32,412 nt of DNA, from positions 1-32,412 of the forward strand of contig JAUCBJ010005879.1 of NCBI GenBank assembly GCA_032718475.1, given 5' to 3'. Position 1 is the first letter of the stretch; each line of letters starts with the position of its first letter. The notes below the pieces were generated by a model, which saw nothing but the letters and a program-made list of their open reading frames with translations, did no database searches and had not been told where the DNA came from. Position numbers and translations under genes: made by a program. Below, one piece after another: positions 3,338-30,708 of the stretch. Source of the DNA: Nemertoderma westbladi (Eukaryota > Animalia > Xenacoelomorpha).

Positions 3338-3341
3338 GTAT

Positions 3342-8169: not shown

Positions 8170-8366
8170 GAAAAAAAAGGAATTGTAGTAGATTTATGGA
8201 TTAATGAGGTGGAGGGAAATTTGAATATGTAATACTTTAGGTATTCTAACTATGTACTGCTGTATTAATAACGATTTGTGACTGTACTACCACTTGGCCT
8301 AGTAGCCTAATGATAATTATATACGCACTAATATAAACTGTCAATCTTTGATATTGCAGTATTGCA
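8170..8366 (+). repeat. Gypsy polypurine tract and probable 3' LTR start
   Basis: GAAAAAAAAGGAA (8170-8182) is followed by TGTAGTAG at 8184, downstream of the integrase. The LTR right end and a partner LTR were not identified. Confidence 0.45.
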
Positions 8367-9031
8367 AATATGTTACTAGCGACGACTGAACCAACTGGCA
8401 AGGGTTCCCAAACTCACTTGCAGTGGCCATACATACACTCACGTGTACCACGCACCAACAGCGACAGAAAGCTCATTGACCCAAACAGGTCCCAAAGACC
8501 AATCAGCTGAACATGGAGACAATAACATATAGTATCAAAAAAAAGGAACAGCTGATGGACAATGGAATACATCCAAGCCCCAAAGCCAACTGCCACTGAT
8601 CGCCCACACACAGAACACAGATCACACCACATGAAACCACAGATCACGCAAAGCCACCACCCCTACTGTGTACAGGACTAGCAGTACGGCAAAAGGCCGA
8701 CTAGACGGTTCCACGGCACCATGTTAATTCATGGTTCGCTAGACATGACCAACAATAGCAACAATAGCAACTAACAATTACTTTAACAAACTAGACAGTC
8801 AAAATTCAGACCCCCTCCCAAATATTCAACCCAGGGCTGAAGCGGTCTCAGACAACCCCAAAAAAACCACAGGTCAGTCAGACTTATCCAACCTGGATAT
8901 TGGTCAATCCCCACTAATAGCCCGAGCCAATTAACCATTATAGCTCGTGGGACAAGATATGTAGGGCTATAACTATACTGAAACAACTTTTCCACTATAG
9001 GTACAGTACTAATAGCGTACCTATAGTAGGC

Positions 9032-9498
9032 CTAACACCCAATGAAGTGGATAAATCTAACCTACAATTATTGAGAATTTCACAAAGACTTATAAGAAAT
9101 ATAATCAGCTCAGCGTCAACCCCTTACTCCATTGGCGGATAAATTATCAAGAATTATGATCAATGGATTAATTTGTGTTGGAGGCCGCCTCACTAACACT
9201 CCTATCTCCAGGGATACTATGTTCCCCATATTAATATTCAATCCCGAGATTCAAACCAAATTGATACAGGACGATCATTATCGACTCTATCACACCGGGA
9301 GAGAACACATATTAAGCGAGATCAGAATGCATTATTATCTAGTTCACCCTCGCGCGGCTCTCAACCAGATACTACGAAACTGTATACCTTACAAAAGGAT
9401 TTATAGCAAGCCGATGACGCAATTGGAAGCAGCGCTCCCGATGGAAAGAATTGATTGTTATCAACCCCCATTCAAACACACCAGCGTAGATCTCTTCG
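9032..9498 (+). pseudogene. pol: BEL/Pao element B: pol fragment (integrase zinc-finger region up to first catalytic Asp), 5'-truncated
   Basis: NGLICVGGRL...FPILI...HYRLYHTGREH...CIPY...LPMERI...PPFKHTSVDLF. The reading frame continues at 23314 (GPFEVKR...) once element A and one TSD copy are removed. Confidence 0.88.
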
Positions 9499-10151
9499 TG
9501 TAAGCGGATTCAATTCCATTTCATTTCATTACCCACCAGAAAATGGGATAGTGGCATTTTAGCAATATGTTGGAGATACGAGATTACCAATATTAATCTC
9601 GTATCATAACCAACATTTGGGGGGGGGGGGGGGGGGGGCAACACAAGCCCCGAAGCCACATAGAAAGGAAGGTTAAGAGGTCAAACCACCTCGGAGGGAA
9701 CACAGCTAGTAGAGGCTAGCAGCAGAGGGGAAACACTCCCAGAGAGTGCCAGGGTGACAAGTAGCATATTAGCCAATAGAGGGAAGGGAAGCATGTGATA
9801 GGGAGCAGGAAAGCATCCATTGGTTAGGAGGCCAAAGTAGAGTAGGAGGTGAAGCAATATTAGTGTATCAATCATATATTATGTCAGATTCTTGGATTGA
9901 TACATCAGTTGGTTATTCAGTTTAGTGCAGACCGGTAACAATTATTCACCATCATCGGCACTATCATACCGGTATCTATTATATCTGTATTTATGCCATA
10001 TTAATTGTGCTATCATTTTATAACATCAAGAAACAACATCAAACTCTTATCATTTTTCTCCAACGGCCTCAGCCAAGCTGTTAGCACCATCCCAGAGCAG
10101 AATGGTGACGTGTATAACAATTACCCAGTCGGGATCTCTGATCCCGTCACA
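9499..10151 (+). repeat. 5' LTR of element A (653 bp)
   Basis: TGTAAGC...CCCGTCACA; aligns with 22279-22915. Inr-like TCAGTT motifs occur at 9905 and 9917. Confidence 0.93.
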
Positions 10152-10207
10152 GTGAATAATTTATCAACTGCTACGACTGTGACTGCCAGAGACAGTAAAA
10201 AGAAAAG

Positions 10208-13200
10208 ATGAGCATAGGAGAGCCCCGATTATCTGAGGGAGAGAGAACGCTTCCACGGACCCCGGACGATATCAATCAAACGATCCGTGAGGCCGCGACG
10301 AGACGGAATCGGCCAGCGACGCCGGATTCGCCGACGAGGGACGATCCGGTAGCTGAAGCGGAGGGCGGCCGTCAACCACGAGGGAGGGACGAGTTGACGC
10401 ATGATGGCGGTCGGAGTACCAAAGTCGCCGGCCAGCCACAGGCCGAGGGCGATGGACGGCCCACCGGAACGGTGACGGTGGAGCCGCCGGTACGACAACG
10501 GACCAGGAGAGGTGGAGGAGTCGGTGAAGAGGACATCGGGACGAGTGATCAGCTACGACAGGCCTACAACGCCGCCAAGAAGCTGCTGAAGGAGGACAGA
10601 GAGGGAGGAAAGGTAGACCAGCCAAAGGCTTACACCAAAGGCTAGGTGAGTCGAATAAACATTTTCGATATTTAGTCCGTTTTGAACATGGAGAACTGGC
10701 GAGTGAGACAGCGAGGGGGGTCGCCACAGAACTGTTTGAACTGTGGCGATCCGGGGTTATGGAGCCTGAAGTAGTGTACGTAGGGCCATACTTAGTGGAT
10801 GCTAGGGGAATTAAGTTAGTGGGATGGGCGGATCCGCACGAGGGCGAACCTGAGGTTAACCCCGAGGATTCGGTCTCATCGGTTAGAGAGAACCTCAGAA
10901 AGCGGGGGAAAGTTAGTAGGACAGAGAGGCGACGGGAGTCCGTCGTGACCGATCAGTCCGCTACATCCTCCGCAAAAGCAAGAAGAGTGTTAGAGATAGA
11001 TCTGGCGTATGAACTAGACATAGTGGCGCTGGATCAGAAAGAGTTAGAGAGGCAGCTGGATGAGGGAACTGCGTTATTAGAGAAAGAGAGGGAGTTAGCG
11101 AGGGAGTGTAGAGAGAGGGCCGAGAGGGTGGCGAGGAATTGTAGAGAGCAAGAAGAGAGATAGACAAACGAGCGTAAAGAGCGAGAGGCGAAAGTAGAGA
11201 ATGAGCGTAAAGAGCGAGAAGCGAGGATAGAGAGAGAGGCAAATGAGCGTAGAGAGCGGGAGGCGAGGGAGGCAGAATTAGCGAATCAAAGTTTACGAGA
11301 GGATAGAGAGAGAGAGAGAGCGGGAAAGCATATGCGGGATGATATGCATGCCCGGTTAAGGGGGCTTATGCAATACCAGGCAAAGCAAAAGCGCCGATTA
11401 GAACTGGCATAGTTGGGATTATCTGAGAGTGAGGCCGGTTCAGGTAGTATTTATGAGGAGCCCGAAGTAATGGAAACGTTTGTTAATACCCCACTTATAG
11501 GCACCGGATGACAGACCCAGGACTGGTGTAGCCATACGGGCGGGGGGAGGGGGGGGGGGGGGGGTAATAATAATACTTTGGAAGACATTAATATTAATAG
11601 TACCGTATTGGACAACCCTAATCAAACTTTCGTTGCAGGAAATAATGTTTTACCCAGTAATAATAACTTTAAAATGTACAAAATAATCCAAATAATAATT
11701 TAAATCCAAATATACAAAGTAATACAAATAATCCTAACTTAAATATACAAAGTAATTCAAATAATTCTAATTTAAATATGCAGAATATTCTAAATAATAA
11801 TCCTGATTCAGAACAAAATAATTTAAATAATTTAGATGATAATATTGTTGGTAACGGTGCTATTAATACGAACGCAGGAAACATAGGTGGTCCGACCAGC
11901 GAGAGCATGCAAGTTAGTTCACAGGGAGTAGCGGGGGTGAGTCACCCCGACGGGAGCCTGCAAGGCCACGTAGTTAGGCAGGGAGCAACGGGGGTGAGTC
12001 ACCCCGACGGGAGCCTGCAAGGCCACGCAGTAGTAGAGGGAGAGGCGGGGGTGAATAGACCCAGCCACAGTAGAGACAACGCGTCGACTAGAGAGGGGCG
12101 TAGAAGCGAAGTAGGAGGTAGTGAAATAATAGGTGGCGAGTGGGACGCGGCACCCAACGACTGAGAATAGTAGGGGGATTATGAATATCCCCAGCAGTAT
12201 CCAACCGGCTAGAGAGAGAGAGAGGTTGGCGCCATGAGCGGGCGAGCGACAAGACGTCGAGCCCAGTCGGAAGACGGAAGAAGAACAGTGGAGTTTAACC
12301 GGGAGGTCGAAGAGAGATCTCATGAGCAGGAACGCTACACTGAAGAGAGAAGAAGTGAAGAGAATAGAAGAAGCGTTGCTACGAGCAACCGGAGAGCGAG
12401 GACGGACAGCAAACCATCGGTAGTGGAGATGGAGTGAGAGAGTCAGTGGGGTCGAACTCCGGGAGATTGCCGTCACCCCGGAGAGACGCAGCCTGGCGAG
12501 ATATATCATACGCTGGGAGAGGGGTACAGGATGTACCGGTATGAGGACGAGAACAGGAGAGGGGATTGAAGAGAAACTTCCCGACGGGATGTAGCTGCCG
12601 ATCGAGATTACGGTAGTCGTGGGGAGGACTTCTTGGAATATTTGACAAGATTAAACTTTGGTCCGGAAGGACACAGGCAGACTGCAGGACATACTGTAGG
12701 CCTTAATGCACATACTATAGGCCATGCTGGGAGATATAGTGTAGGCAATAGGGTAGCGCGAACAACGGGATTAGATCCAGAAGTACATACCAGTAGGTAG
12801 GCAGGAAGTGGATAGGCCTATACCGGTACCTGCACAGTAGTATGACTATAATATGCAGTGACATAACATATACCCAGGGGAGGGGGGAGTTATTGCAGAT
12901 AGGTGTATGGGCCCCAATATATTAACATCAACCCTAGTACCAAACATAACACTGGTGGGGGGGGGGGGGGCAGGGTGACATTCCCCCCATTACAATATCA
13001 ACAATACACTCAACCGGGAATAAGAACATCGATCCCCCTGGACCAGAACAGGTCATGCGACACGGAGATATGGAGGGGCCGTTACCCCCAATGATATATC
13101 CGACGCAGAAAAAATCAACAGGCCCGACGGCGGACCGCACCCAACAGGAGAGTCTGTACAGCATCCCTCGAACCCATTGAAAGCACAGGCGATGGGAATG

Positions 13201-13910
13201 GCAACACTTATCAATGCGCTCAAGACCAGGATCGAGCTACCACCAGTTGAGCCATTTATATTCGACGGAAGCAGACCGGAAGAATACCTGCAATTCCGAC
13301 GCATGTACAGCAACGAAATCTTAACTAAGAACCTGATGCAGGCGGAGTGCCTAAAATATTTACAGGTATACACAGGAGGCCCAGCGTACGACATCGTGAG
13401 GCAGTATCAGGGCATATGGACAGGGAATATGGACACCCTGCCAAGATCATCCGGCAGACCTTGAGGGGAATAACAGTGGGTGGCCTCCAGGATAACCCTG
13501 TTAGTATAAAGACCTTCGCGAATAAGGTCGAGAAGGCGTTAATCGTGCTGAAGACGCTAGACACGCCATACGAACTCAACGCATCGAATAACATCACCAC
13601 GATAGCGCAGGCAATGCCAATCTGGCTATGGAATAAATGGAGGAAGATCGCCTTCTCCACCCGGGGGAAGAAAGGTGTGGAACCGGGCCTAGAGGAAATG
13701 TCGAACTTCCTCAATTACGAAGCGGAGTTGATCATGGACCAAGTCTATAGCGAGGATAGTCTGGGGAGGGTGCCAAAGAGCGAATATAACAGGCCGAAAC
13801 CAGAACATAATGCGGCGAATGCATTACCAAAGCTTAGACAATCGCTGCCATACGCGGCGACGCAGGGGACTGCTAGTCCACATATAGCCGGGGGTAGGGC
13901 CACACCATAA
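10208..13910 (+). pseudogene. gag: BEL/Pao gag (DUF1759-like core), many stops and frameshifts
   Basis: ATG at 10208, an E/R-rich coiled coil (~11020-11340), an Asn-rich tract, then LPPVEPFIFDGSRPEEYLQF...LKYLQVYTGGPAYDIV...REYGHP...MPIWLWNKW...LEEMSNFLNYEAE (13177-13910), typical of BEL gag. Confidence 0.85.
11929..12065 (+). repeat. 60-bp in-frame tandem repeat inside gag (2 copies plus a partial third)
   Basis: GGGGTGAGTCACCCCGACGGGAGCCTGCAAGGCCACG recurs 60 bp apart (GVSHPDGSLQGH x2). Each copy contains the palindrome GGGGTGA-G-TCACCCC. Confidence 0.85.
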
Positions 13911-13922
13911 TAATGATACATA

Positions 13923-14560
13923 CAACATAATGATGATGGGGTGATGATATCTCCACCTACTGGCTCCAGAAGTCGAGGAAATCCTGCCAAGTACCTAACT
14001 GATCTAGACTTTGCTGATGACTTAGGAGTACTCTCAGAATCACTAGAGGGAGCCCAACGGCTCCTCAGCTCATTAGAACATGCTGCTTCTAGTGATGGTC
14101 TTTTGATTAACTCCAGAAAGACCAAAACTTTTGACAGTTAACTTTGAAAGTCCTCAGCAAGTCTCTGATCGGATGAGCATAAGCTCAAAAGATGGTATGC
14201 TTGAGCATATGGATGACTTCTGTTACCTGGGATCATGGATCCGGAAGTCAGGTGAGGACCTTCGAATATGTAAGGGAAAGGCATGGGCAGCCTTGAATAG
14301 GCTTTCCAGGATTTGGAAGTCAACGAGAATTAATCGGAAACTTAAGGTCCAATTATTTAGAGCAGCAGTAGTTCCAGTACTCTTCTATGGGAGTCCATGC
14401 TGGGCTCTAACTGCTGAGGACACCAAATCTCTGGATGGCACATTCACAAGAATGTTACGACGGGTTCATTGTGTCAAGTACAATGCACACAATGTATAAT
14501 CTTGTACTTTGGCAGCCTCATGGAGTGAATAAGCATGGTGGACAGCCCACGACTTTCTTG
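13923..14560 (+). mobile_element. Non-LTR retrotransposon (RTE-like) RT C-terminal fragment inside element A
   Basis: LTDLDFADDLGVLSE...GLLINSRKTK, DFCYLGSWI, KAWAALNRLSRIWKS, KVQLFRAAVVPVLFYGSPCWAL, TRMLRRV and LWQPHG...GGQP. Confidence 0.85.
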
Positions 14561-14639
14561 AGACGCATCTTAACCCTATCCATACCGGGGTACTTTAGAC
14601 GCTCAAACTACCGGGGGGGGGGGGGGGGGGGACTTTTGT

Positions 14640-17600
14640 GGACGTAAATGGACAGGACCTACTACCTGCCACTTCATGTGGCTTTAGACCCAATATTGGT
14701 CTGCTATTGGTCAATATTAGAAGGGTAAACTGCGGATGGTGGTTGACGCATCGGCTAAAACCAATGGCAAGAGCCTAAACGACTATCTGCTGGAGAGCCC
14801 CAATATTTACAACTCGGGGATAGAGGTCTTGTTGAGATTTAGGAATGGGAGGCACGCCTTCACATGCGACATCGAAGGCATGTTCAACCAAGTCCGTGTG
14901 ACGGAAGAGGACAGCGACAGCCAGCGCTTCCTATGGTACAACGGCGACGAGGAACCGTCGGCGATACCGATGTACAAAATGGTGGTGCGGAACATGGGGG
15001 CCAAGTCGTCCTCATTTACGACGACCATGGCTGTTAGAGATACGGTAGAGGGGAAAGAGGGAAAGTACAGTGCCAGAGCGATCGACATGATTCGACACGG
15101 CTTCTATGTAGACGATGGGATGGAATCTGGAAATACGGTTGAAGAATTACTGGAGACAGGGCGCGAGGTTCGCAACATCCTGAAAGGATCCGGATTTAAC
15201 CTGACTAAGTTCCAATCCAGCTCAGAGGAGTTCATGAGAGCCATAGAAGACAGGTGGCCAGAGTCGACCATGGACAACCCCACAACAGCCAAGGGACATG
15301 ACATGGCGAACAAGAGAGTGGAGTCTCAGCAGAAGGCGCTGGGGATTGTGTGGAACCCGGAGACTGACGAGTTCATGTGTCATACATAGCAAGGTTATAC
15401 GATCCCTTAGGCCTAGCATCCCCATTGTTAGTCAAGGGGAGCAGATACTAAAGAAAGTATATAAGTTAAAGGACGAGTGGGATACGGAGGTCCCAGAAGA
15501 AATAAGCAAACAGTGGAGTAAGTTGACGGGGAGTTTAGAACAGATGGGGACGTTCAGCATGCCACCCATGTATTTTCCGGACAGGGACATGACGGATCTG
15601 GACCTACACATGTTCTCCGATGCATCATTGGAAGCATATGGAGCGGCACTCTCTCTACCTGGTACAGCGAAAGGGGGCTCATATGCCCAGACTTGCATTC
15701 AGTAAAGCAAAGTCGACACCACCAGATTCAGCATCAGTCCTGAAACTCGAGTTGACAGCTGCGAGATTAGGAGTAAGGGCCACAGCCTACTTGATGGACA
15801 CTATACCCAACATAGTGGAGACACACTACTGGACGGACTCCATGGTTGTGCTGGGCTGGCTGCATAACGAGAAGACGAGATACCCTATATTCGTCGCAAA
15901 TAGGGTAGATGAGATAAGGGCGACAACTGACTTGGAAAGGTGGCACTACTGCCCTACATGCGACAACCCAGCAGACTTGTTATCGAGGGGCGTGGCACGC
16001 CACACTTTCTCAAAGAAGGAAGTGTTGTGGCAGCACGGGCCACACTTCCTGAATTATAGATCGGCCTGGCCACCAATGAAGAAGGTGGACCCGGGCTCAG
16101 AGGAAAGAGCACCAGAAGAAGAGGGAGAAGATTCAGAAGGAGAAGAGATATATAGTCAGATGCTGAGGGAGGTCAAAGAGGTGCCACCGAAATCAGAAAA
16201 GCCATGCGACAACCCGATGGATAGGTTACTCAGCTACAGCTCCAGCTAGTATAAGACCAAGAAGTTGGTAGTGTACTGGAGGGCCTACGGGGATTTCCTC
16301 AAGAGAGTTGGCAAGGACGCCCAGAGGAAAACAAACATCGATCTGGAGGGAGCGGCCAAGGCCGTAATACGGTACGAGCAGAGAAAGAACTACGCCGACG
16401 AAGTGGATCGAGTTAGCAAGCAAAAACATCTTCGTCGGGACAGCGAGCTCAACACGCTGTCACCACAACTAAATGATGATGGGATTCTGGTGATGAACTC
16501 CAGAGTGTGAACAACAACAGCCCAATCATCCCACCAAAACCCGTAATCATTCCCAACAAATCGCCGGTAGTCCACCAGATCATTTGGGACTCCCACAAGT
16601 CGATATTACATGGAGGCACCAACCAGACCCACACAGAGATACGGAGGACTTTCTGGATCACGCAGCTAAGGAAGAAGGTGAAGGCGGTAGTGGGGCAGTG
16701 CCAGACCTGCCGACGGACAAGAAAGGAGGGGGCCGTACAGGAGATGGCGCCATTACCGGCCAGTAGGGTGAGACAGCACGACCTGCCATTCCCACACTGC
16801 GGTGTAGACATGTTCGGGCTGATTAAGGGGGGTGGTACACCATTTTCGGACAACTCTTCGATTTATCACTCTCAGCATTTCAAAATTTTTTGATTTTGGC
16901 TATAATTTGGAATATAGGTGCCTAAGATGCTATTCTACATGATAGGTTAGAAAAAAATTTTTTTTCGCTATTTAATATTAGTTAATACCAGTTAACAATA
17001 AAAAAAACTTGGTTGCTCTTAAAACCCTAAGGCTTTTACAGTTTTGAATCTAATCACGTGAAAGTTTTTTTATATGATAGATCAAAGATGGGGCAACATA
17101 ACTATCAGGCGAAATTTTGTGAAAATAATTCTGCGCCGCTAGGTGGCGCTGCAAATTTAGGCTAAATTTTTAGGTTTGTTATAAATAGTATTAAATTTTA
17201 TTAACAAATAATTTCGAAAAGTTGTCTGATACTTTTATGCAGGGTGGCTATCTAGACACCCACTGGAAGTTTCAGACTAATTGCTCAAAAATTGTAGAAG
17301 TTGTAGGGTTTTGAAGTTGACAATTTCATAAAAAAAATATTTGGAGATAATCTACCTTTCATTATACATAGTAATAGTAATTTCAATAGGAATCCCTAAA
17401 TAGAAATTGGTATAACTGGAAAACTAAATGAGCTATTAAATAGCGGTTTTCAGATTAGGAAACACCATTCAATGGTGCATTATAGTAGACCATAAAAAAA
17501 TTCGACATATTTTTGACCAAAATGGTGCACCCCCCCCCCCCCCCCCCCACCTTAAGATCAAGGTGATGCGACACACGGAGAAACGCTACGGCATCATCTT

Positions 17601-18441
17601 CGTATGCAACAACACGAGGGAGGTAGGAATAGAACTCGCACAGGATGCTACGGCATCGGCATTCATTAATGCCTTAGAGAGATTTAGAGACCGCAAAGGT
17701 GGAACAATCGCGGTGATTTATTCAGACAATGGGACCAACTTCGTGGGAGCGGAGAACGAGTTGGCAGAGGCCTTTGACATCCTAGAGGGAGACGATGTCA
17801 GGGCGGCAATGAGGAGGTGGCAGGTGAAATGGGAAAGGAGGACGCCGTATGTGCCACATACTTTAGGATGTGTCGAGAGGCTTGTGGGTAGTTCTAAATG
17901 TCTGATGACGAAATTGATGAACACCCACATGGTCACAGAGGACATACTAAGAACAGTGCTAGCTAAGTGTGAGGGAATCATTAATAGCAGACCGCTATAC
18001 CCGGAGAATGACGACCCGGAATCACTAGACGTGCTAACACCGGGTCACTTTCTGATGGAAAGGCTGGCGACCATCGACATGCGGGGTGTAGACCCAGATG
18101 ACATACACTCCCGACAGAGTTGGAAGGTCGCCAAGGCGATAAGCACCGAGTATTGGAGACGGTGGAGAAGGTGGGTAGAGGAATACCTCCCCACATTACA
18201 CAGGAGGAGTAAGTGGAGAAACACCACTAGGGAGTTGAAGAAGGGTGACTTGGTGATCGTCACTGACGACACAATCATCAATAACCATTGGAGGCTAGCG
18301 AGAGTGGTAGACACTTACCCCAACGAGGACGGAAGAGTCCGATCGGTGGAAGTGCGGATTGGAGGCAAGATAGGAGCAAAGGACAGGAAGATCTACAGGA
18401 GGGCTGTAGGGAAGTGCTGCCTATTAGAAGGGGCACCATAG
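14640..18441 (+). pseudogene. pol: BEL/Pao pol of element A: RT, RNase H, integrase and DUF5641-like tail; frameshifted and split by a MITE
   Basis: YYLPLHV...GKLRMVVDASAK, CDIEGMFNQV, FYVDD, YDPLGLASP, LHMFSDASLEAYGA, KLELTAA, YWTDSMVVLGW, NPADLLSRG, HKSILHGG...CQTC, CGVDMFG, YSDNGTNFVGA, GCVERLV, INSRPL, YLPTLHRRSKW, GRVRSVEVR. Confidence 0.95.
16827..17551. mobile_element. TTAA-flanked non-autonomous DNA transposon (Kolobok-like MITE, 725 bp)
   Basis: TTAA at 16823-16826 and 17552-17555; TIRs GGGGGGTGGTACACCATTTT / AAAATGGTGCACCCCC...CACC. Removing it restores the frame GLIKIKVMRHTEKRYGIIF. Purine-start termini with a TTAA TSD favour Kolobok over piggyBac (CCY start). Confidence 0.85.
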
Positions 18442-18597
18442 AGTTTAGTCGTCCAAGTGTTGGACTTAGGGGTGGGATTGAGGGCGAGACGCCCTTCCCA
18501 CACAAATATATAAAAAAAAATAATAAAAATAAAAGAAGTGAAATAAAGAAAGGGTTAGAAAGAGAAAGTAATAGTAGATAGTATGTAGTAGTAAGTA

Positions 18598-18962
18598 AGT
18601 AGGCAGATAGAGGTATAGGGAGTGTGGTATATAGGCATACCACGGGAGTAAGAGGGCACATAGTACCATTAGTAGGTAGATAGAGGCATAGGGAGTGTGG
18701 TATATAAGCATACCACGGGAGTAAGACGGTACATAGTACCGTTAGTAGGTAGTTAGAGGCATAGGGAGTGTGGTATATAGGCATACCACGGGAGTAAGAG
18801 GGTACATAGTACCGTTAGTAGGTAGTTAGAGGTATAGGGAGTGTGGTATATAGGCATACCACGGGAGTAAGAGGGTACATAGTACCGTTAGTAGGTAGTT
18901 AGAAGTATAGGGGGTGTGGTATATAAACATACCACAGGAGTAAGAGTGTACATAGTACCGTT
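18598..18962 (+). repeat. 73-bp tandem repeat x5 with two hairpins per unit
   Basis: GGGAGTGTGG (last copy GGGGGTGTGG) recurs at 18618, 18691, 18764, 18837 and 18910. Stems are GTGGTAT/ATACCAC and GGTAC/GTACC. Confidence 0.92.
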
Positions 18963-19140
18963 AGAGTTGGTGTTAGTAGAGTTAGTAGAGTTAGTAGAGT
19001 TAGTAGATTTAGAGGGTTAGTAGAGTTAGTAGAGTTAGTAGAGTTAGAGGGTTAGTAGAGTTAGAGGGTTAGTAGAGTTAGTAGAGTTAGCATAGTTAGT
19101 ATAGTTAGTAGAGTCAGCAGAGTTAGTAGAGTTAGTAGTA
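18963..19140 (+). repeat. 9-bp microsatellite (AGAGTTAGT)n, degenerate
   Basis: Directly visible; it abuts the accessory ORF. Confidence 0.92.
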
Positions 19141-19154
19141 AGAGAGTGGAGAGT

Positions 19155-21383
19155 ATGATATGTAAATATATCATAAGAGTAGTGGTGATAGGGACACGGG
19201 ACACCGTTGCAGACAACGCGATCCTCGAGCATTTCCACGACGTAGTGAAAGTAGACGAGGCAAAGTTCGGGATACCGAAGTATCCGAGGGAACCACCAAG
19301 AAAGGACTGGAGGAGGTTCGTAGAGTCCTTGAACAGGGGAGGATACATGGTCCTAGACGACGAAGGGACTGTGGAGGATGAAGAGGGTTTGAGAAGAGGG
19401 TCGGCGGGGTCGGCCAGAACCATACTACTGCATTTGGCTGCGCCAAATGGAGACATATTCCTATTCGATCTAGGAACGTATCGGAAGAAGAGCGGGCCGA
19501 AATTAAACCGGTTGCCATGGGCGGTGCAGAACCTAGTAAGGGAGAAGTCAACGATGAAGGTGGGATTGGCGATCCGCGACGATGCGGAGATGATCGTCAG
19601 ACCGGAGACCCCCAACCTCCTGGACATGCAAGCAGTCTACATGGCCATGACAGGGCCAGACGGGTTGGGATTGGTAGAGAAGACAGGACATTGCGGAGCA
19701 GTGGCGATGGGCCAGCTCATGGGGCTCATCTGCCACAAGCCGATGAAATGGGGTAAATTCAGGGAGGTGTATGGAGCGGAGCTGGCGAACTCGCTGAAGT
19801 GGGGAGTGAGGCCAGGGAAACAGGAGGTGTATCAGTTCTGGAGAGGAGCGATAAAGATATATCAGAAGCGATATATCCTACAGGAGGATTGGATAATGAT
19901 AGGTTTGCTAAACCTATTCATGGCCGTGGTTATCGGAAGAGAGCCAACGTCGTTTCTGCTAGCAGGATCACCCCTGAACTACAGAAGAACCTTCAAGGTG
20001 CACTTCGAAGGTCTGGCAGACCACCCGGGGCTGAAGGGCGAGTCAGTATACTACAACTGCCGGCATCTAGTAGACAGGGAGGTGGATACACCATATCAGA
20101 GGTGGGAGAAGCTGGAGGCGGATAGACTGGAGGAGAAGCGACTGGAAGAAGTCACCAGATGAGAAAGGAGGGAGGCAGATGAAAGAGAGGCGGAAGCTAG
20201 AGGAGAGGACTACGGATTTGAGGCCCAGAACTTGGACGAGCTACGGTGGGGATCAGGGTTCTTGGGCAAGTTTCTGGGGGAGGAGCTAGGATGGATGGAA
20301 GAATCGCCGAAACAGTCGACATCAGGATTGCAAGCGATGCCCATGCCAGCGGGCTCTGAGGGCGATTTCGCGAGGAAGAGACCGAGAGAACTGGAAGGAT
20401 GGCAAGTTACGGGCAAAAGCCAAGGTGGGAAGGGACACAGTGGGCCTGCCGGGATACCGGGTCTGGATCCACTCCCAGCAGGGGATGAGGATGACGACGA
20501 GTTCGGGGAGATGCCGCCCATCGAGAGGATCGGCCACTCAGACATGGACTGGGTTGGCGAGAGGTTGGTGACGGCCAGTGGGGCGAGGGCCTTCTGGGAT
20601 AAACCCGGCAAGCGGACCTGGGTGCACGAGGAGCCGGCGATGGATTTCGCGGGGAGCACCATCAGGTTGGGTGAGCAACCGGGAACGGCACCACGGGTAG
20701 TGTTTGGAGAGACGATGCCGAGGCGAGACAAGGACGTAGACATTGACAGAGACGTTAACGTCCAGAAGTTTGCTTACCCACGGCTCCATAGACCTAGGAG
20801 ACCGCTTGGGGCAAAAGATAACTTGGGGCGGGATGTGTTGATGCACGGCTGCGATTACTGCGGGAGGCTTACTCACCAGGAAAAGAGCTGTTTGTATCGA
20901 TTCCAGAAGGGGACGAGTTGCCTCTACTGCCGCGAGTCGAGTCATAGGATGGGGGCGTGTCCGAGGTTGCACAACCGCTGCTCTAAGTGTAACTTTAGAG
21001 GGCACTACGGGCGCAAGTGCGACTGGATGGACGACGAGGAGAAGTTAAAGATCTTCGAGGAGTGGGCCGACGTCGGCATTATGACGTGACAGAGAATGAA
21101 GGCCCAGGAGTTCCGGTGGGGTTTGTTCAACATCAATCAGGAGGCCCATCTGGAAATTATTAAGAGGAGACTTCCGTTTACATGCCAAGAGGTAGCGACA
21201 GCGGCATCATATGTTGGGGTCATCAACACGAAGAGGTATTTGGATAGATGGGCGCCGGAGAACAGAGGAGAGTTTAGAGATTTCCTGGCGGAGCACGTGC
21301 CGCGAACCATGAAGATGATCTTGTGGGACACTACTAGGGGGAAGCAGGAGGGGCATTCGGAAGGGCCACCTCCAAAGCGTTAG
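19155..21383 (+). pseudogene. Element A accessory ORF (~740 codons, two in-frame TGA): DEDDy 3'-5' exonuclease-like domain plus 3 CCHC zinc knuckles
   Basis: ORFs 19146-20162, 20232-21089 and 21096-21383 share one frame. ExoI MVLDDEG (19356), ILLHLAAPNGDIFLFDL, ExoII LPWAVQNLVREKSTMKVGLAIRDD (19581), LLDMQ, ExoIII QKRYILQED (19872). Knuckles CDYCGRLTHQEKSC, CLYCRESSHRMGAC, CSKCNFRGHYGRKC (20850-21020). Confidence 0.8.
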
Positions 21384-22270
21384 CGAGAGCTAATAACACC
21401 AGCGCCCAAAGAATCGACCATGGGAATTAGTAAGGCAGTAACGGCGAGAATGAGGAGTCTCAAAGAGGACAAGCCAGAGGGAAGGAAGCGACCCAGACAG
21501 GACGACGATAGAGGGAAGGAACTGAGATGGTTCAAGAAGACGGGATGAGCGAACTAAGACTCGGAGGGGGAGATGTGGGGATGCCTGGAAGGCACCACAT
21601 GTGAAGTAATACGAACTCCTAAGTGCAAATTTAATAAAGTGCAATTAGTATGTACGTATGTAATAATCAATAGAATATAATTAGAATCAATATAATCAAA
21701 GTATGTATTATAGTCATATAACCTTTTCCAACTAGCTACTGGGACTGGGGACCAATTGACTATGGTAGGAGGACGGGACAGTAGACGAATCACACTTCTT
21801 GAGTGCAACGGCACAAAAGGGGAGGGTGAGGCTCATCAGGAGTGAGTAGAGTAAAATAAGTGTGGGTTGAGTATAGGAACATGGGGGAGGTACGGAGAGG
21901 AGGTGTTGACGTGCGCAGAATGTAGATGGGTGCAATTCAAAGGTGGGAAGCAAGCAGTAAGGGAGAGAGTAAGGGACGATAGGGTCCATAGGATATAGAG
22001 TAGAGTGAAGTTAGAGTGAGTTCAGAGTGAGGTGGTATAAAATTGTGTGAAAGGAGTCCATAATTGTCTCGAACAGAGATGTCAGATGTCTTGGTGCAAC
22101 ATAGGTTGCGATTGCACCAAGAAGGGGTAGCAATATCATACCCAGGGGGGACGGCCTGGAAAGCCAACCCCGAGAAAAGAACTCCACCCCACACCCGATA
22201 GTAGATCGGGTTCCAGCGAAATTGAAGCGCACTTGAGGTTGATGCTATCTTTTCACTGGGAAGATAGCAT

Positions 22271-22278
22271 GGGGGGAG
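22271..22278 (+). promoter_or_regulatory. Polypurine tract of element A
   Basis: GGGGGGAG lies immediately before the TG of the 3' LTR. Confidence 0.85.
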
Positions 22279-23308
22279 TGTAAGCAGATTCAATTCCACT
22301 TCATTAACCACAAGAAAATGGGATAGTGGCATTTTAGGAATATGTTGGAGATACGAGATTACCAATATTAATCTCGTATCATAACCAACATTTGGGGGGG
22401 GGGGCAACATAAGCCCCGAAGCCACATAGAAAGGAAGGTTAGAGGTCAAACCACCTCGGAGGGAACACAGCTAGTAGAGGCTAGCAGCAGAGGGAAACAC
22501 TCCCAGAGAGTGCCAGGGTGACAAGTAGCATATTAGCCAATAGAGGGGAGGGAAGCACGTGATAGGGAGCAGGAAAGCATCCATTGGGTAGGAGGCCAAG
22601 GTAGAGTAGGAGGTGAAGCAATATTAGTGTATCAATCATATATTATGTCAGATTCTTGGATTGGTACATCAGTTGGTTATTCAGTTTAGTGCAGACCGGT
22701 AACAATTATTCACCGTCATCGGCACTATCATACCGGTATCTATTATATCTGTATTTTTGCCGTATTAATTGTGCTATCATTTTATAACATCAAGAAACAA
22801 CATCAAACTCTTATCATTTTTCTCCAACGGCCTCAGCCAAGCTGTTAGCACCATCCCAGAGCAGAATGGTGACGTGTATAACAATTACCCAGTCGGGATC
22901 TCTGATCCCGTCACAGTGAATAATTTATCAACTGCTACGACTGTAACTGCCAGAGACAGTAAAAAGAAAAGATGAGCATAGGAGAGCCCCGATTATCTGA
23001 GGGAGAGAGAACGCTTCCGCGGACCCCGGACGATATCAATCAAACGATCCGTGAGGCCGCGACGAGACGGAATCGGCCAGCGACGCCGGATTCGCCGACG
23101 AGGGACGATCCGGTAGCTGAAGCGGAGGGCGGCCGTCAACCACGAGGGAGGGACGAGTTGACGCATGATGGCGGTCGGAGTACCAAAGTCGCCGGCCAGC
23201 CACAGGCCGAGGGCGATGGACGGCCTCGGCCAAGCTGTTAGCACCATCCCAAGGCAGAATGGTGATGCGTATAACAATTACCCGGTTGGGATCTCTGATC
23301 CTGTCACA
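22279..23308 (+). repeat. Compound 3' LTR of element A: full LTR (22279-22915), copy of leader/gag start (22916-23225), second LTR 3' end (23220-23308)
   Basis: 22916-23225 matches the sequence after the 5' LTR (10152-10461) with 2 substitutions. It joins through ACGGCC to an LTR end that is followed by the TSD. Confidence 0.9.
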
Positions 23309-23313
23309 CTTCG

Positions 23314-24266
23314 GGCCCTTTGAAGTTAAGCGTGCCCGCTCGATAGTGAAACGGTGGTGCGTCATGTTTGTTTGCATGACTTTTCGAGCAGTCTATCTGG
23401 ATATGGTTAACAACATGTCGATGAAAAGCTTTATCCTTTGACTCTGGAGACAGATCGGTAGATTTGGCACTAGCCGGACTATAAGATCCAACCAGGGTAC
23501 TAATTTCGTAGGTGCCAACAATGAAATCTCCAAATTCATTATGGATTGGAATGATCACCAGCTCGAAGAACACCTTAAAGTGTCGGCATCCATATGGACA
23601 TTCAATGCCGCCGACGCGCCCTGGTGGGGCGGAAGTTGGGAACGGTTGATTAAAAGTACAAAGGTCTCGTTTCATCACAAATTCCCATGTAAGGCTTATT
23701 TAAATGACAAACTGCTCAGAACACTTTTGGAGGAGATATCAAGTTACTTGAACGATAGACCCCTCTTACCTATTTCGTCGAGTCCACAAGCCATGGAACC
23801 CCTAACACCGTCCCATTTCCTACTAAGAAAACCAGTAACAATGCTGCCCAAATCCGATCCAAAGGATGGCGATGAACTGTTGAGACGCACATGGCAAATG
23901 ATGCAACTACTATCTCGGCGATTCGCAACACACTTCGAAAGCTACTATTTACCTTCAGTCCAGCTCAGGACCAAATGGTTTCCAAAGAAGGAAAATGTAT
24001 CAGTTGGCGATATAGTACTTTTAGTGGATCAGGACAAACCTAGAAAGACCTGGGAAACGGGCTGTATAACAGAAATTTATACGGGTAACAATAACTTGGT
24101 ACGCTCAGTAGAACTGACTATTTGGAGAGATACACCCAAACCCAAAGTACACTATTTAAATTGACCAATCGGATGCCTTTGTTTACTAGAATTGGCAACG
24201 GAACGTTCCGGTAACCACAGGCAACAAAGGTTTAGACTAAGCAATCTGACATACAAACTGGAGTAA
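23314..24266 (+). pseudogene. pol: BEL/Pao element B integrase core and C-terminus
   Basis: GPFEVKR...KRWCVMFVCMTFRAVYLDMV, SNQGTNFVGA, APWWGGSWERLIKSTK, LNDRPL, LTPSHFL, YLPSVQLRTKW, VGDIVLL, LVRSVEL, *PIGCLCLLE. Confidence 0.93.
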
Positions 24267-25327
24267 CGTCTTATAAAGGGTTACGATTGAGTGTGTAATT
24301 ATTTATTAGCCATTTTATACAGCGTAGGTATTAGTATTAGACTATGGTGCGCATGTAGCAACAAAACCTACTTATGTTAATTATACGTTGTATATGATAG
24401 CAACATATGCGACAATTTAATTTAACAGTAAATTATTTGACTTAAAACTTAAATAATTCAAAATAAATGACTAATTACTAACGACAATACTCAATCGTTG
24501 AGCGGATTTATGTGACGTTACGAGCATAGAAATATGTGATTTTCAAAAAAAAAATTGTTTAATTTATATTAAACATAAATCATTAAACACAAACTAATAA
24601 CCACAATTAAATTTAATATCGCCATAAATGCCTAAATTACTACTTAAAATACTACTTAAATTACCAAATGACCAAACTATTACAGTAGTTATTTGTGTGA
24701 AATAAGTGTGAGAAGTGAGCATTCTAATCTCTATTTACAAACATATCACGGAATAATTAATTAAATAAAAACGAAACAACGTGTTTCCCAGGAAACATAG
24801 ATAGAACTCGTACAACTGTGAATGCAACCGCTTAGTACAGCTTGTATGGGAAAAGCAAAATTGTTATCATGGATACACCAAACGGTGAATTCTGGTAAAT
24901 GTTTAAAGTTAAGCGTTTTTGAACTGTATTTTGACCGTATATTGAACAAAAGTGCACAAATAAGCACCAAATTAAGCTAAATAGTGTAAAAAACTGAGAA
25001 ATAGTGTGAAATTTTAAGGTTTACACAATTGTCCAACCCTTCATAGATGCTAGAGTTATAGTTGATCAGTGATGGCTCCGGGCCAGTCCCCTGTCTCCCT
25101 GGCTTGATGAGAGTTTAGCCTTTAGCCACGATATTTCGGTACCGCTGGTAGTTGCAAACTCGATTCTTGCCACTAGGGATTGACCAGGGACTGCGTCACA
25201 GCGTGTCTCGGCGCCTTTGGGGAGGTAACGCTTGCCTAACCCCTATATACATTCTTCTACTCAAACTCGCACATGTCTCGACACACAAAGACACTCAAGC
25301 GACGTTCTGGGGAACAGCACGCAGAGA

Positions 25328-28300
25328 TGATGGATATGATGACTGCTGATTTCACTGGCGATTCCACCGAGCTCGCTCAAAGCATGGAACTGCGTATGGA
25401 TCCTTCAGGGAACTACATCGAACCGCCGATGAACCCCGAACAGCACAACATCGAACAACAATATCGTGAGTTCATTCTCAAATATACCGAGCGCGATGGA
25501 AGTTATAACAGCTTCCTCACCACTGGTCACCCCATGGACTTAAGGGACATCAATGACCAGCATGTTCAAACTACACGTTGAACGGCAACGTAGTAACGAG
25601 ACCTGAACACAACACAACTATCAGATTCGTGTTGGTATCGCGGACGATGACACCGAGAATCCTTCTCACCTCTCCTGCTTCGAGGAATATGTCACCTTTC
25701 TCCGCGAAACGTATCTAAAGGTCGCAAGTCAACATGATTTATAAACTCTGTACCTTAAGGGTGTTCATCCTAACCCGGCTAAGGAGATCAAACGACTCTA
25801 TCACAGCATGATGTACCTTACTGAGGGTCGCCCACTCCCAGTCCTCCCTGATGCTTTCTACGACATGGAGGAATACAGTAAGTCAGGTGTAAAGTCTCCA
25901 CCCCCGTGCAAAACTGACTTTCGGCTCTGGTACTTGTGTCGTCAATGCCCATATCACAACCAACAGGTCTCCACTACACCTGTGAATCACCCCCATCAAC
26001 GATGCTCCCGCCATAGCTTCATCAAGTATATGCACGGTGGGTTTGAGGAGAATCAATTTAACGTCGATGAGAAACGGTTACGTAACTTGCAGAGGTTGCG
26101 TAAACCCATGATCCGTTTCCCTGAATTTTCTCCCGGCCCAATGTTGCCTATATGGTGAAACACATGATGCTCTCACCGACCGACCCCCGCTTCGAAGCCA
26201 TGTATCTGTATTTCCCAGACCTCGTCATGGATGAACAGATAGCTCCCCATTACCAAGAAAAATGCCGACCCCTCTTCAACCTTCCATGGTCGGTATAGGT
26301 CACGGCAGTTTGCTGCAGCACGAGGAATCCATGTGGACCTCCCCTCTCACCTCTGCCGGGACCTCCACGGTTAATCGTAACTACTTTGGTTACCGAGTTC
26401 CTTGGCACCCTTCGAAACTCTATCGGTGTAGATGACCCTATTAAACTCTCCGGCAAGCTCAATGTCGTCCGTCAGATGAAACTACCAAATTCGAATCAGA
26501 AGTCCACCTCCTACAAGAGGAAATCGAATGAGGAAAGGCTATCTCCCTCACGGATGCTCTTAGAGAAAGCCAACATCTTCGCGAAGAAGAGGAATGGACA
26601 GAGCGTGAATGTTTAACTGACGAGCGCGAGCTAGCTTCTTTGGTCCAACCCGCGGTCCAGACTCTTATGGAAGGGTTCCAAAGTAAAGCGCAGGCTCACC
26701 CGTCCAGGTCTGTAAAGCGTTTCGGTGTCACTTACAGTCAAACCCGAACGATACCTTTCGACACTGACATCTCTAACCCCAACCTAGTTGCAGACGCTCT
26801 GATGTTGGAAACCCACATTGTAGAGCCCCTTCTCGACGAAACAGATGAGTGGATCATCGCTCCCCTTGGTCAAACTGACCAAATCAAGTCGCTAATCTGG
26901 GACAAAAACCTATAAAGATGACCTCTCCATCCACCGTTCTATGGAATTCAGGACCATCCGGATTTTGTTCTACTCGGTCAACATTATGTGATGAAACCCG
27001 AGGATCCCGCCTGCAGTATGGATTTTCTACCCCTAGTTAATCCCCTCGATGTGACGGAAATCGAACCACTGCAGATACACCTAGATTACATAATCAAACT
27101 GAACGCCTTTCGCAAACCCTTCAACATACAAACCATCGAGGATAAACCCGCGCCCCTATGGAATCTCGCTAATTTTATTAGTGATCGATTGATTCACTGG
27201 AACATTGACGTACAGTTCCGGGAAGATAAACTCTCTACCACATTGAAAGGAAAATCTGTCGTAGAGAATGTCCAAAGCTACGAATCGGTAGTTATCGCCC
27301 GAGGCTCCATTGGATCCCTCGATAGCTTATGGACACCGGTTGAAGTGGATGAAACTGTCGTGTATCTCGAGTTTAACAACACTCTTGAGATTATCCTATT
27401 ATTATTATTATAATTATTATTATGATGCTATACGATAACGAAGGTTCCGTATCGAACGATGAACTAGGTACTACCCGATTAATACATATCCGTTGTTTTA
27501 ACCAGAGTCACCCATGTATTCACGCGATCCTCCCGTAGCGCTGATGCATCCTTCACCCCTCCGTCCTTCCAGGAAATGGTACCTCGGCATGGACAGTTCA
27601 AGAAGTCCTACAGATACGTTATTGAAACCAAGCGTCACCCTACGCCCAGCATTGAGCCTTCAATGTTGCCCTAACCCGTTCTCGACCTGTTGTTCAATGA
27701 GAGGATTTGTAAACTCGGTTCAGCGATATATCCCGACTTGTATAAGGACTTTGACTCCTTATTAGACATCCCTTACCCTTTTGCAGACACACAAATGATC
27801 CTCCCGTGGGCCCAGGAATGTGGTTTCTTCCGCGCCATTTACGAACGTGTAGGCAACGAAATGCGTAGAGCTGAACATACTGGCATCGGACACATTTCGT
27901 TCCATGAACTCGGTTGGGATTTCAAGGAAGGTAGGTATAACCGTTATTTAAACCTATATGGTGATAATTATTCGCGTTATTACATCAATGGTCCTCTGAC
28001 CACCCCCGGTGCTGTTTATTCTAACATTAGTGTCCCTCTCCGGCCTTCTCCCACCATTTACATAATTTACGAGAACTCTGCCGTATCAGGTTGGCTAGCC
28101 GATACTTGTAGTAGGACTCTGAGGTCCCACCCCTTACTTCTCGGCACCCAGCTTGCCAAAGTTAAACGTGAAGGGAAATTCCAAAGTTTCGAATGTTTTC
28201 AAAGGTTCTTATTCCCCTTCTTCGGCATCGACAGCCAATTCCGTGACCCCGCTCTGAAAGGACAGGTAAATAAGCATTTATCTGCTTTTGAGGACCTAAA

Positions 28301-29233
28301 CCAAAAGGGTTTCGCCATATTCAAGGATGTGTGCATCAAAAACCTACCTTCTACTATTCTAGAGCGCCCCATCCTCAAGTCTGGATACTCAGTCTCAATG
28401 GGCCAAACCTCAGATAAGCAGATAGCTTCCTATTTAAATGACTATGCGGTGGACAACGTTTTAGAATCCAAACCCGTCCATCCCACCTCTGAATTAGACG
28501 ATGACGGCGAGTTTATTATACCGTGGCACCTTTGACCACAACCATTAACGAGAGTTGCCTTTCGTTCAGCCGTGCCACAAGGTCGGAAGCGCTGCATTCA
28601 ATGTGGCTCCCGTGCGCATAAAGCACTACCTACTGGCGAGATTTGCCAAACTTATTCACAATGTTCTGTTCTGAGCTACCCCCTCATTGTCTGTATTGTA
28701 GATTGATTAATGATCACACGTTCTTTAACTGTTCGCAATTCTCGGAACAGTGCGATAAATGTCCATTAAAGGGACATTACCCGAGCTCCTGCCCCTTTGA
28801 CTTGACACAACGGGACGGCGAAACATCCCTCCTAAAGTATATTAAATTGTGGGAGCATTCTGCGGATTTACACCAAATCACACGCCTCCATTATGAGTCT
28901 TCCCACTCATATTGCGGAGTCTTTGCCGTCAACCCTTACACCTTTGTGATTGAAGCGCAACAATCCCACCTTCCTGACTACCAAATACTGTTAACAGTCT
29001 CTGAGCTCACCAACGTTCAATATGTGTGCACGTTCCTTTGCCGTATGAACCCCGGTGATGTGACAACCTATAACCTTATCGAATTTATTCGAAAAGACTC
29101 CAACCTTGGTTACGAGTTCGTCGCCACCAATCCTGAGTTATTACAAACTTTGGATCGCGTTACGTACCTCCGTCATACCGCACGCCTTGCGGAAGAGACA
29201 GAGGTATATTTAGAGGTAGAGGAGGTGTCATGA
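25328..29233 (+). pseudogene. Element B accessory ORF (~1300 codons, broken): unknown N-terminus, DEDDy exonuclease-like domain, 3 zinc knuckles; homologous to the element A accessory ORF
   Basis: ExoI LYDNEG (27434), TRLIHI, ExoII LP*PVLDLLFNERICKLGSAIYPDL (27735), FADTQ, ExoIII-position YIIYEN (28059). CIQCGSRAH, CLYCRLINDHTFFNC and CDKCPLKGHYPSSC lie at 28593-28792, then WEHSADLHQIT. The start position is uncertain. Confidence 0.72.
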
Positions 29234-29336
29234 CTTCTTCACAAACTCTTAAACGACCAGTCACTGCCGCCATCCTCAAGAAAGCGGTACAATCCACATT
29301 ACCCCCTTCCTCTAGATCTTCACCGGCTAAAGTACT

Positions 29337-30708
29337 ATGGAGGGATGTGAAGCGAGAGAGTGGGCGGAAGAGAATGGATTTGATGTGGAAGACTTAGAGG
29401 CAATGGGATGAAACAAGGGTCCCAGCAAGTATCGGTATGGAGATGGAGAGGCGCGGACGGTGAGATGTCCGGAGGACAACCCGGAGGAGTGTCCGATGGA
29501 GTGTCAGGAGGACAATAGTCCGGAGGAGTGTCCGGAGGAGTGTCCGGAAGAGACGCAGGTCCGGTTGAGTGGCATACCGACAAGGGGGAGGTCGAGTAAG
29601 AAGACAGGATGGAAAGGGATAGGATTACTATTGTACCTTCTGTTTTGTCTGTTCTTTCACTTTCTTTTCATTCTGCCGCCGGGAGACAACAAGGTGGGAG
29701 GTGGCATTTTGATGCCAAGAGACGAGGAAGTTAAGAAGGCGGAGGAGAGGAAGGAGGGTATCCTTTATCTAATCCATATCATTCATTTGCTATGTGTGGA
29801 CCAAAGGCGGGAGAAATTGTCGTTTGTCCACCTAAGATTGTTGAACCCGATGCATTTGAACATACGCTGGAAGAGCTGACTCAGTCAACCCGCGAAAAGA
29901 AAGAAGCTCTTAGCCTATACAGAGTCTATAAGGCTTTCGAGGAGGGTGAGATGGAAGAATGGGGCGGAAGACTCGCGAGCCTACCTTACCATTGGACGTC
30001 ACATGATCAGACTTCAGCTAAGGAGATGACACCAAAAATTTTCGAAAGTATAAACTTTGCCCAAAATGTTTAATCGTATCACATATGGTGAATTTGATCG
30101 TTTCCGAACAGAAAAGCGGAACAAGGGAGCTTGGTTAACCGTCGCATGGGCGTATCGAGCCGCATTCTATCACAAACGTATACGAGCGAGCGTATTCGAG
30201 GAAGAGGAGATCCTAGAGGCGACCAACATACCAGCTACTCCGGGTGCGCCGTCTGCACGTCACCCTCGGGAGGACGGACAGAATAGGATTATAAGGGTTC
30301 AGAAAGTGGAGCCAACAACTAAAGAAAACTATAAATATTGAAGAACGAAGGGGATATGAACCGACTATTCGAGTTACTCGGGATATGGTGTCACTTCCCA
30401 GAGAACCGCAAGGAGGATTAGGACACATACCAGCTGATCAAAAGGGGGCGCAAGTTTCTCTTGAGTCTGCGTCGTCCACTTCCCGCGCATTCCCAGACGT
30501 TTTACCAACGGTAGACACAACCGGTCGATCACGAGGAGTCGGTCGAGGATTTGGGATGCCTAATAGACGAGCATGTGAGGAAATGGTCGCACCATCTCCC
30601 AACGTCCAAGGTAAACTAGTGACTCGCCCCACAAGTCCCATACCGCGAGCAAAGTCACCTGTACACAGTTTTCCAGGACGCGGCAGGGCTCGATCCACCA
30701 AGCGGTAA
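29337..30708 (+). pseudogene. Degenerate orphan coding region of unknown product
   Basis: A chain of abutting plus-strand ORFs (29460, 29792, 30057, 30385) with coding-like composition and an ECPE repeat (GAGTGTCCGGAG). No recognised domain. Confidence 0.35.

Follow-up and report, generated by a model that had tools for sequence, protein, structure and literature searches.

Third genes behind pol are known from several retrotransposon groups. In bdelloid rotifers, a DEDDy ORF3 (ORF, open reading frame) is carried by the Gypsy-like elements Juno and Vesta and by the Penelope-like Athena/Terminon elements (Rodriguez, Kenefick, Arkhipova 2017, PMC5408684). Its function in the rotifer elements is untested, and the options raised in that paper are RNA 3'-end processing, a link to silencing of the mut-7 type, and a kinship with catalytically dead RNA-binding proteins such as Maelstrom and EXD1. 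For BEL/Pao long terminal repeat (LTR) retrotransposons, the third genes named in the literature examined are env-like only, namely F-like in Roo and Chuviridae gB-like in mosquitoes (PMC13524379, PMC3118150). Non-env accessory genes of retrotransposons are otherwise poorly known. Here we describe a 32,412 nt stretch of Nemertoderma westbladi DNA (contig JAUCBJ010005879.1, hereafter the window), in which a BEL/Pao element, A, interrupts the integrase of another element, B, and in which a gene ending in three CCHC zinc knuckles follows pol in both. New here is a post-pol gene of BEL/Pao whose specific three-knuckle module is common to two distant elements. We lean towards a reading in which A and B are diverged BEL/Pao elements sharing this post-pol gene, with the B segment 27422-29233 being a decayed homologue of A 19155-21257 and the front half of the encoded protein being a predicted DEDDy-type domain.

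As in the rotifers, the gene of A and B is an additional, non-envelope gene located after pol, with an RNase D/WRN-type 3'-5' exonuclease reading (here predicted). Further points of likeness are the spread of ORF3 over unrelated element lineages and the Cys-His zinc motif present in some copies, Vesta2 and Vesta5. In contrast, the rotifer elements, compared here by description only, are Gypsy-like or Penelope-like and not BEL/Pao; DEDDy homology is described as strong there, whereas no significant profile match was obtained here; and no three-knuckle CCHC array is described in the text, where 'CCHC' and 'zinc knuckle' have 0 occurrences (PMC5408684). The env-like third genes of BEL/Pao occupy the same post-pol slot as the A/B gene but encode membrane fusion glycoproteins, whereas the A/B gene has no glycoprotein family and ends in nucleic-acid-binding knuckles (PMC13524379, PMC3118150). 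No report of an exonuclease in BEL/Pao was found in the literature covered, which excludes subscription journals and Repbase reports, and exonuclease cargo has so far been described only in other retrotransposon groups.

The shared C-terminal module comprises three CCHC knuckles and a tail (20850-21257 in A, 28593-29060 in B). The pattern C-x2-C-x4-H-x4-C occurs three times in A (20850-20891, 20919-20960 and 20979-21020); B retains two intact knuckles (28688-28732 and 28751-28792, one with x5) and a third, CIQCGSRAH at 28593, that is broken by a frameshift. A regular-expression scan of the window in six frames detected CCHC clusters only in these two genes. With the A ORF as tblastn query, B was matched at 28688-28882 only (34% over 65 amino acids, E 9e-5); from the B side, the alignment continued through the A stop codon (29.5% over 95 amino acids, E 1.2e-7), and the B tail ORF matched A 20919-21257 with 28% identity over 123 amino acids (E 7e-7). 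A frameshift-aware Smith-Waterman program was written for the analysis, with significance assessed by shuffling the query. The knuckle region scored z 12.8 (0/200 shuffles) and 11.1 (0/300), and the tail past the knuckles alone scored z 2.9, a value reached by 28 of 2000 shuffles. Frameshift-aware alignment with shuffles, the check proposed in the initial annotation, supports the knuckle module (z 11-13) and does not support the front half (z <=1.7). All peptide pairs quoted there for A and B were located in the sequence, on the forward strand and in the stated order, and self-blastn confirmed that the two genes lack DNA-level similarity. We take the C-terminal modules of A and B to be homologous, an assignment that the alignments make solid.

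It is very improbable that the resemblance is generic, i.e., that any two retroelement knuckle arrays would look alike and the other matches are due to chance. The Cys/His spacing of CCHC knuckles is indeed fixed, and 81 of the 85 score points stem from the knuckles themselves. Gag nucleocapsid knuckles share the tandem C-x2-C-x4-H-x4-C arrangement, yet the A/B knuckles differ from them in lying after pol and in a Pfam zf-CCHC_4 score of 13.7, below the cut-off of 27, and neither the A ORF nor the B tail matched the BEL/Pao gag knuckle motifs of four metagenome loci at E <=1. The non-knuckle tail extends the alignment to the full 123 amino acids and lowers the E-value. Moreover, CLYCR and C.KC...GHY are identical between A and B, and in each gene 81 nt separate the F..P motif from the first knuckle.

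Element A spans 9499-23308 and is flanked by a CTTCG target-site duplication (9494-9498 and 23309-23313). A self-blastn search revealed a long direct repeat (9498-10461 versus 22278-23225, 96.8% over 964 nt), of which an 89-nt piece occurs a third time at 23220-23308. The LTRs have TG...CA ends, and a purine-rich tract precedes the 3' LTR (Table 1). The pol region contains Peptidase_A17 (1.5e-15), RVT_1, Integrase_H2C2 (6.7e-12), rve and DUF5641 (6.1e-23) by Pfam. Element A is a BEL/Pao (Belpaoviridae) LTR retrotransposon, combining an LTR pair, a target-site duplication, a Pao-type region, a reverse transcriptase (RT) and a DUF5641 integrase. It was inserted into the integrase of B, because removal of A together with one CTTCG copy fuses the flanking segments into a single integrase frame (...VDLFGPFEVK...).

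The post-pol gene of A lies between pol and the 3' LTR, within the LTR- and CTTCG-bounded element. Its frame is open from 19065 to 21086, with a Met codon at 19155 and one in-frame TGA at 20160-20162. In this frame we located YMVLDDEG (19344; LDDEG at 19350), TILLHL (19419), LPWAVQNL (19512), KVGLAIRDD (19557), LLDMQ (19617), KTGHCG (19680), YILQED (19872), FAYPRLHRPRRPL (20769) and FEEWADVGIMT (21054). Beyond the stop at 21087 the frame stays coding-like, and the similarity to B continues in frame to about 21257. The in-frame stops at 20160 and 21087 mark this copy as dead. Intact copies likely exist, given the very high abundance of the A family, by contig depth, in the public runs of this organism (summed depth 5,000-30,000 over the gene). 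Separately, contigs of run X1 with at least 80% likeness added up to a depth of 13,000-30,000 over 19208-21227, i.e., the post-pol ORF, versus 4,600-9,000 in the noncoding flanks; this would be consistent with the ORF being better conserved across subfamilies, contig depth being a poor measure.

The initial annotation had proposed a second, highly divergent BEL element, and this agrees with the Integrase_H2C2 and DUF5641 matches of B (Table 1) and with the identity of only 29% over 224 amino acids (E 2e-28) between the integrases of A and B. These domains support the assignment of B to BEL/Pao, deeply diverged from A. The sole LTR sign of B is a candidate start at 29347, where TGTGAAG follows GGAGGGA; this could be its 3' LTR, and the repeat starting there is a candidate for that LTR or for part of another, unrelated element. 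As initially described, both genes follow pol after a noncoding spacer: in A past 18441 and tandem repeats, and in B past the AT-rich spacer and then also past a region of broken coding-like frames, 'ORFx'. The interval given for the B gene, 25328-29233, proved too wide, for 27422-29233 matches A whereas 25240-27413 has no counterpart there.

The B gene begins 3.3 kb past the integrase stop (24164). Its first frame contains MMLYDNEG (27422) and TRLIHI (27473); the second frame contains PVLDLL (27675), the ExoII-like KLGSAIYPD (27711), FADTQ (27780), HTGIG (27876), YIIYEN (28059), FIIPWHL (28512) and the broken knuckle; the first frame resumes over 28622-29233 with CLYCR (28688), CDKC (28751) and WEHSAD (28850). 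Two or more frameshifts and the stop codons at 27672 and 28533 show that this copy is dead as well. The intervening 2.1 kb ORFx yielded no Pfam family and may be a further B gene; its contig depth is similar to that of the rest of B. A herpesvirus gB-like hint at 25240-25581 (E 0.098) was rejected, since it disappeared in a three-frame read-through Pfam scan, which returned 0 families for 25000-27452.

Whether the downstream gene belongs to B was assessed with public contigs from three runs of the same organism at >=80% likeness to the region; these contigs are short, and their depth does not equal copy number. Summed depth amounts to thousands to tens of thousands over A, stays in the range of hundreds to low thousands, with no step, across 23248-29307, and then rises 10-50 fold from 29342 to 29386. 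Sequence variants, each present in 3-15 contigs per run, occur at 24158, 24162 and 24199, showing that diverged B copies continue past the integrase stop. One contig links 24199 with 24999, and another holds 24989-25151 together with 25964-26105. No site of many contig ends was reported across the B region in these contigs. Together, these observations are good, though not conclusive, evidence that the integrase, spacer, ORFx and gene of B form one repeat unit.

It is quite improbable that 27422-29233 lies outside B and represents part of a different mobile element or the relic of a host gene located 3' of a truncated B. The window contains no RT of B and no LTR pair of B, the latter speaking against our reading; a 1.1 kb AT-rich spacer and the 2.1 kb unexplained ORFx separate the integrase from the gene, and the GC skew changes sign after 25000. 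Against this stand the even depth up to the jump at about 29347, the lack of a site where many contigs end, and the contigs that cross the integrase stop and bridge the spacer towards the gene; in addition, the one homologue of this module occupies the equivalent post-pol position in the other BEL/Pao element. The initial annotation had itself named assignment of 25328-29233 to a different element as the outcome that would overturn its view. Contig depth, stop-crossing copies and bridging contigs instead speak for a single unit as far as these data reach.

The front half of the gene was compared with DEDDy exonucleases, whose cellular members include RNase D, the WRN exonuclease, Rrp6 and mut-7 (names in part from PMC5408684). 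The likeness to the cellular PF01612 proteins lies in the order of motifs, with a hydrophobic strand and D-x-E followed by K-h-G-x-A-h-x-x-D and Y-x3-acid, and in the ESM Atlas neighbours of A. In this language-model resource, 24 of the 30 matches of the A front half were PF01612, with scores of 0.93-0.95 and a recognition value of 2357; the Atlas itself states that 4-10 of 100 shuffled proteins attain 0.9. We also built a profile from 60 bacterial PF01612 domains gathered via E. coli rnd. Local HMMER matches to it were best at columns 66-90 for A and 66-105 for B, both on ExoII, with the B match including 'fdTq' against FADTQ, and the scores were reached by 8/500 shuffles for A and 1/500 for B. 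The hhalign P values, all on ExoII, were 0.19 for A, 0.013 for B and 0.0072 for A plus B.

Alignment to the whole profile, with assumed background frequencies, gave A z-scores of 3.13 (1/400) and 3.43 (0/200), which rank first among 17 rows representing 16 window ORFs; the 15 control ORFs ranged from -2.0 to 2.24, so that A leads, but not by much, a weak pointer to a DEDDy-like fit. In the traceback, the TILLHL/DIFLFDL strands, KVGLAIRDD and KWGVRP of A fell on the expected columns, whereas ExoI was matched to the adjacent DEE and ExoIII stayed unaligned. The ExoII-like pattern, which was chosen afterwards, is present in 23 of the 60 bacterial domains and occurs 2 times in the 64,820 six-frame residues of the window (19557 and 27711). 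With D-x-E, D and Y-x3-D, which we take to be the defining DEDDy motifs, candidate ExoI, ExoII and ExoIII are readable in order in A (19350, 19557, 19872) and in B (27431, 27711, 28059). The acid after Tyr in ExoIII would be Glu in both A and B, a difference from cellular PF01612 along with the lack of a significant sequence match; the A/B gene also differs from these proteins in its fusion to knuckles and its location on a mobile element.

Several results weigh against a DEDDy front half and against its being shared. Pfam returned no family for the A front half or for B 27675-28532 even at E <=10, and both front halves stay below the PF01612 (DNA_pol_A_exo1) family cut-off. PHROGs and NCBIfam gave only noise and no family on the front halves; PDB sequence searches gave nothing by phmmer and one M16 peptidase at E 1.1 with the A2 profile; and two AlphaFold2 runs without relatives were unusable, with a predicted local distance difference test (pLDDT) score of 36.4 and 34.5. 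The 286-aa ORF of B had no usable ESM Atlas match. Local scores with our own profile were 0.1 bits for A and 2.5 bits for B, and among 376 window ORFs B ranked 6th and A outside the top 15; hhalign probabilities were 0.3-5%, and the whole-profile z of B was only 1.3-1.7. No relatives were found in a 5.8-billion protein set with the A front half (near and shorter lengths) or the whole ORF, nor in metagenome and viral contigs with the exonuclease half and the knuckle part. Likewise, no homologue was present in 10 metagenome BEL/Pao loci with 29-61% integrase identity, five of which continue for 1.2-7.5 kb past the matched integrase region; a post-pol ORF is lacking in loci L149 and L151, and behind the integrase match of L152 no ORF reaches 150 amino acids. 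Finally, direct comparison of the two front halves stayed at chance. Frameshift-aware Smith-Waterman alignment of A residues 31-365 with 4 kb of B in three frames gave z -0.3 (reached by 119/200 shuffles), cheap-gap chaining gave z 0.03 to 1.2, BLOSUM45 over all frames gave z 1.7, 0.8 and 0.05 depending on the search space, and the ExoII and ExoIII pieces alone were reached by 631 and 731 of 1000 shuffles; a MAFFT alignment of the ExoII-III stretch showed 23% identity (z 0.8-1.8).

Higher values were obtained in restricted spaces. The ExoI piece scored z 5.3 (0/1000) in a space chosen after seeing the match and z 3.7 (4/1000) within 700 nt upstream of the B ExoII-like motif, a post hoc region; and a hand-joined B path gave z 4.0 (4/1000) with BLOSUM45, one of four matrices. 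These post hoc values do not carry a homology claim, because about 15 parameter sets were tried and the significant ones were pieces or frames picked by eye. Since the integrases themselves are only 29% identical, an accessory domain is expected to fall below pairwise detection; therefore, the failed tests do not refute homology of the front halves. The claim in the initial annotation that both elements carry the same exonuclease is nevertheless not supported in that form: without pre-selected frames and region the front halves are not significantly alike, and the exonuclease is a lead for A and a weaker one for B.

A substantial but, in our view, unlikely alternative is that only the knuckle and tail module is shared, by inheritance or by a template-switch swap, and that the front halves are unrelated and contain no exonuclease, the product acting as a nucleocapsid-like chaperone of nucleic acids. 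Every unbiased A-B front-half test at chance agrees with it, as do the lack of profile, PDB or fold support for an exonuclease and the failure of ESM Atlas to recognise B, and an exchange of ORF modules between retroelements is argued for in PMC5408684. It is opposed by the PF01612 result for A in ESM Atlas, by A being the best of the 16 window ORFs against the DEDDy profile, by the best profile matches of A and B both falling on ExoII columns, and by the B ExoI-like piece lying just upstream, at the expected place. On balance, the front half of A is probably a diverged DEDDy-like domain, and that of B is probably a decayed relative of it. Because PF01612 membership was tested and the family cut-off was not reached, the front half of A is treated as an exonuclease lead and is not filed in that family.

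For a shared gene with a predicted DEDDy-type front half, a mechanism can be sketched. The accessory protein would be translated from the element's own transcript, and its knuckles, by analogy with nucleocapsid knuckles, would bind single-stranded RNA or cDNA and so bring the nuclease domain to 3' ends. There, the predicted nuclease might trim element RNA or cDNA during replication or remove silencing host small RNAs. We favour such a role as a replication helper or in anti-silencing, as a proposal at each step. An active enzyme in intact relatives is possible, because both copies still show readable candidate acids (D-x-E, D, Y-x3-E). A more far-reaching version, in which an old BEL/Pao sub-lineage has kept its own active, knuckle-tethered 3'-5' exonuclease since before the A/B split for countering small RNAs or finishing cDNA ends, appears rather unlikely. 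The initial annotation regarded the gene as an old conserved feature and not a capture. That reading is inseparable here from an exchange of the module between elements, as PMC5408684 proposes for rotifer elements.

The front half is likely an exonuclease, a reading that at present stands as a lead. If this is true, the locus would be a second independent association of an exonuclease with retroelements, pointing to 3'-end trimming as a recurrent retroelement need, and would provide a simpler system for probing it. It would also contrast with the rotifer case in its BEL/Pao setting, in the fusion of nuclease and knuckles, and in being common to lines at 29% integrase identity.

Table 1. Positions of the features of elements A and B within the window.
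Feature	Position	Strand	Basis
Element B, integrase N-terminal zinc-binding part, interrupted by A; last 5 bases are CTTCG	9105-9498	+	Integrase_H2C2 E 4.8e-4, junction
Element A, 5' LTR (TG...CA)	9499-10151	+	self-blastn, junction reading
Element A, pol (RT, 'Pao peptidase' region, integrase with DUF5641), frameshifted	14721-18441	+	Pfam, ORF frames
Element A, tandem repeats (73 nt and 9/17 nt units), spacer from pol to post-pol ORF	18595-19117	+	repeat search
Element A, front half of the post-pol ORF with a candidate 3'-5' exonuclease domain of DEDDy-like type	19155-20159	+	ESM Atlas, whole-profile fit
Element A, back half of the post-pol ORF in the same frame: linker rich in acidic residues and Gly, FAYPRLHRPRRPL at 20769, three CCHC knuckles	20163-21086	+	regex scan, tblastn
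Element A, 3' end: LTR 22278-22915, second leader copy 22916-23225, last 89 nt of LTR 23220-23308	22278-23308	+	self-blastn, junction reading
Element B, integrase core and DUF5641 C-terminal domain	23314-24164	+	DUF5641 E 9.3e-16, junction
Element B, AT-rich non-coding spacer, repeated within the organism's genome	24165-25239	+	GC 0.32, many diverged contigs and bridging joints
Element B, 'ORFx': broken coding-like frames, ends in (ATT)n microsatellite	25240-27413	+	ORF list, Pfam, comparison with A
Element B, gene, first piece with ATG ATG start: MMLYDNEG...TRLIHI...CIHAI, candidate ExoI and two strands	27422-27535	+	restricted-space z 3.7-5.3
Element B, gene, second piece in other frame, in-frame TAA at 27672	27540-28535	+	own DEDDy profile, hhalign
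Element B, knuckle module: first knuckle frameshift-broken, two intact knuckles, tail ORF to stop 29231-29233	28593-29233	+	regex scan, tblastn
High-copy repeat, starts TGTGAAG after purine-rich run	29347-30500	+	contig depth jump, sequence

The pol of A is frameshifted, and the element contains an RT fragment of the long interspersed nuclear element (LINE) type. This LINE-like C-terminal fragment (13917-14640; RVT_1 5.3e-5, DUF6451 6.1e-5) sits at the expected gag knuckle/protease site, and the regular-expression scan found no knuckle in the gag region of the present copy. The 3' end of A is compound (22278-23313), with a full LTR, a leader copy (22916-23225) that matches 10152-10461, an 89-nt LTR end and then CTTCG; such a layout resembles what a large deletion would leave of a tandem LTR-internal-LTR-internal-LTR array. 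An ORF with 'KEKMSIGEP' common to 10199 and 22963 was set aside as part of the duplicated leader and not of the LTR, based on self-blastn and junction reading. In the metagenome locus L149 (1-6981), two BEL/Pao copies in tandem share an LTR (pol, LTR, then gag-pol), and gag knuckles occur at 5613 and 5712.

Immediately upstream of B, a Gypsy-type integrase fragment (7065-7857, forward strand; Integrase_H2C2 1e-12) is distinct from B and is bracketed by an inverted 69-nt repeat (6488-6556 versus 8764-8832). A seemingly intact ORF of 487 amino acids on the reverse strand (4694-6154) encodes a Crypton-like tyrosine recombinase with DUF3504 (2.9e-13) and Phage_integrase (7.3e-8) matches. Further upstream, a 30-nt tandem array of about 25 units occupies 2664-3433, with several frames open on both strands.

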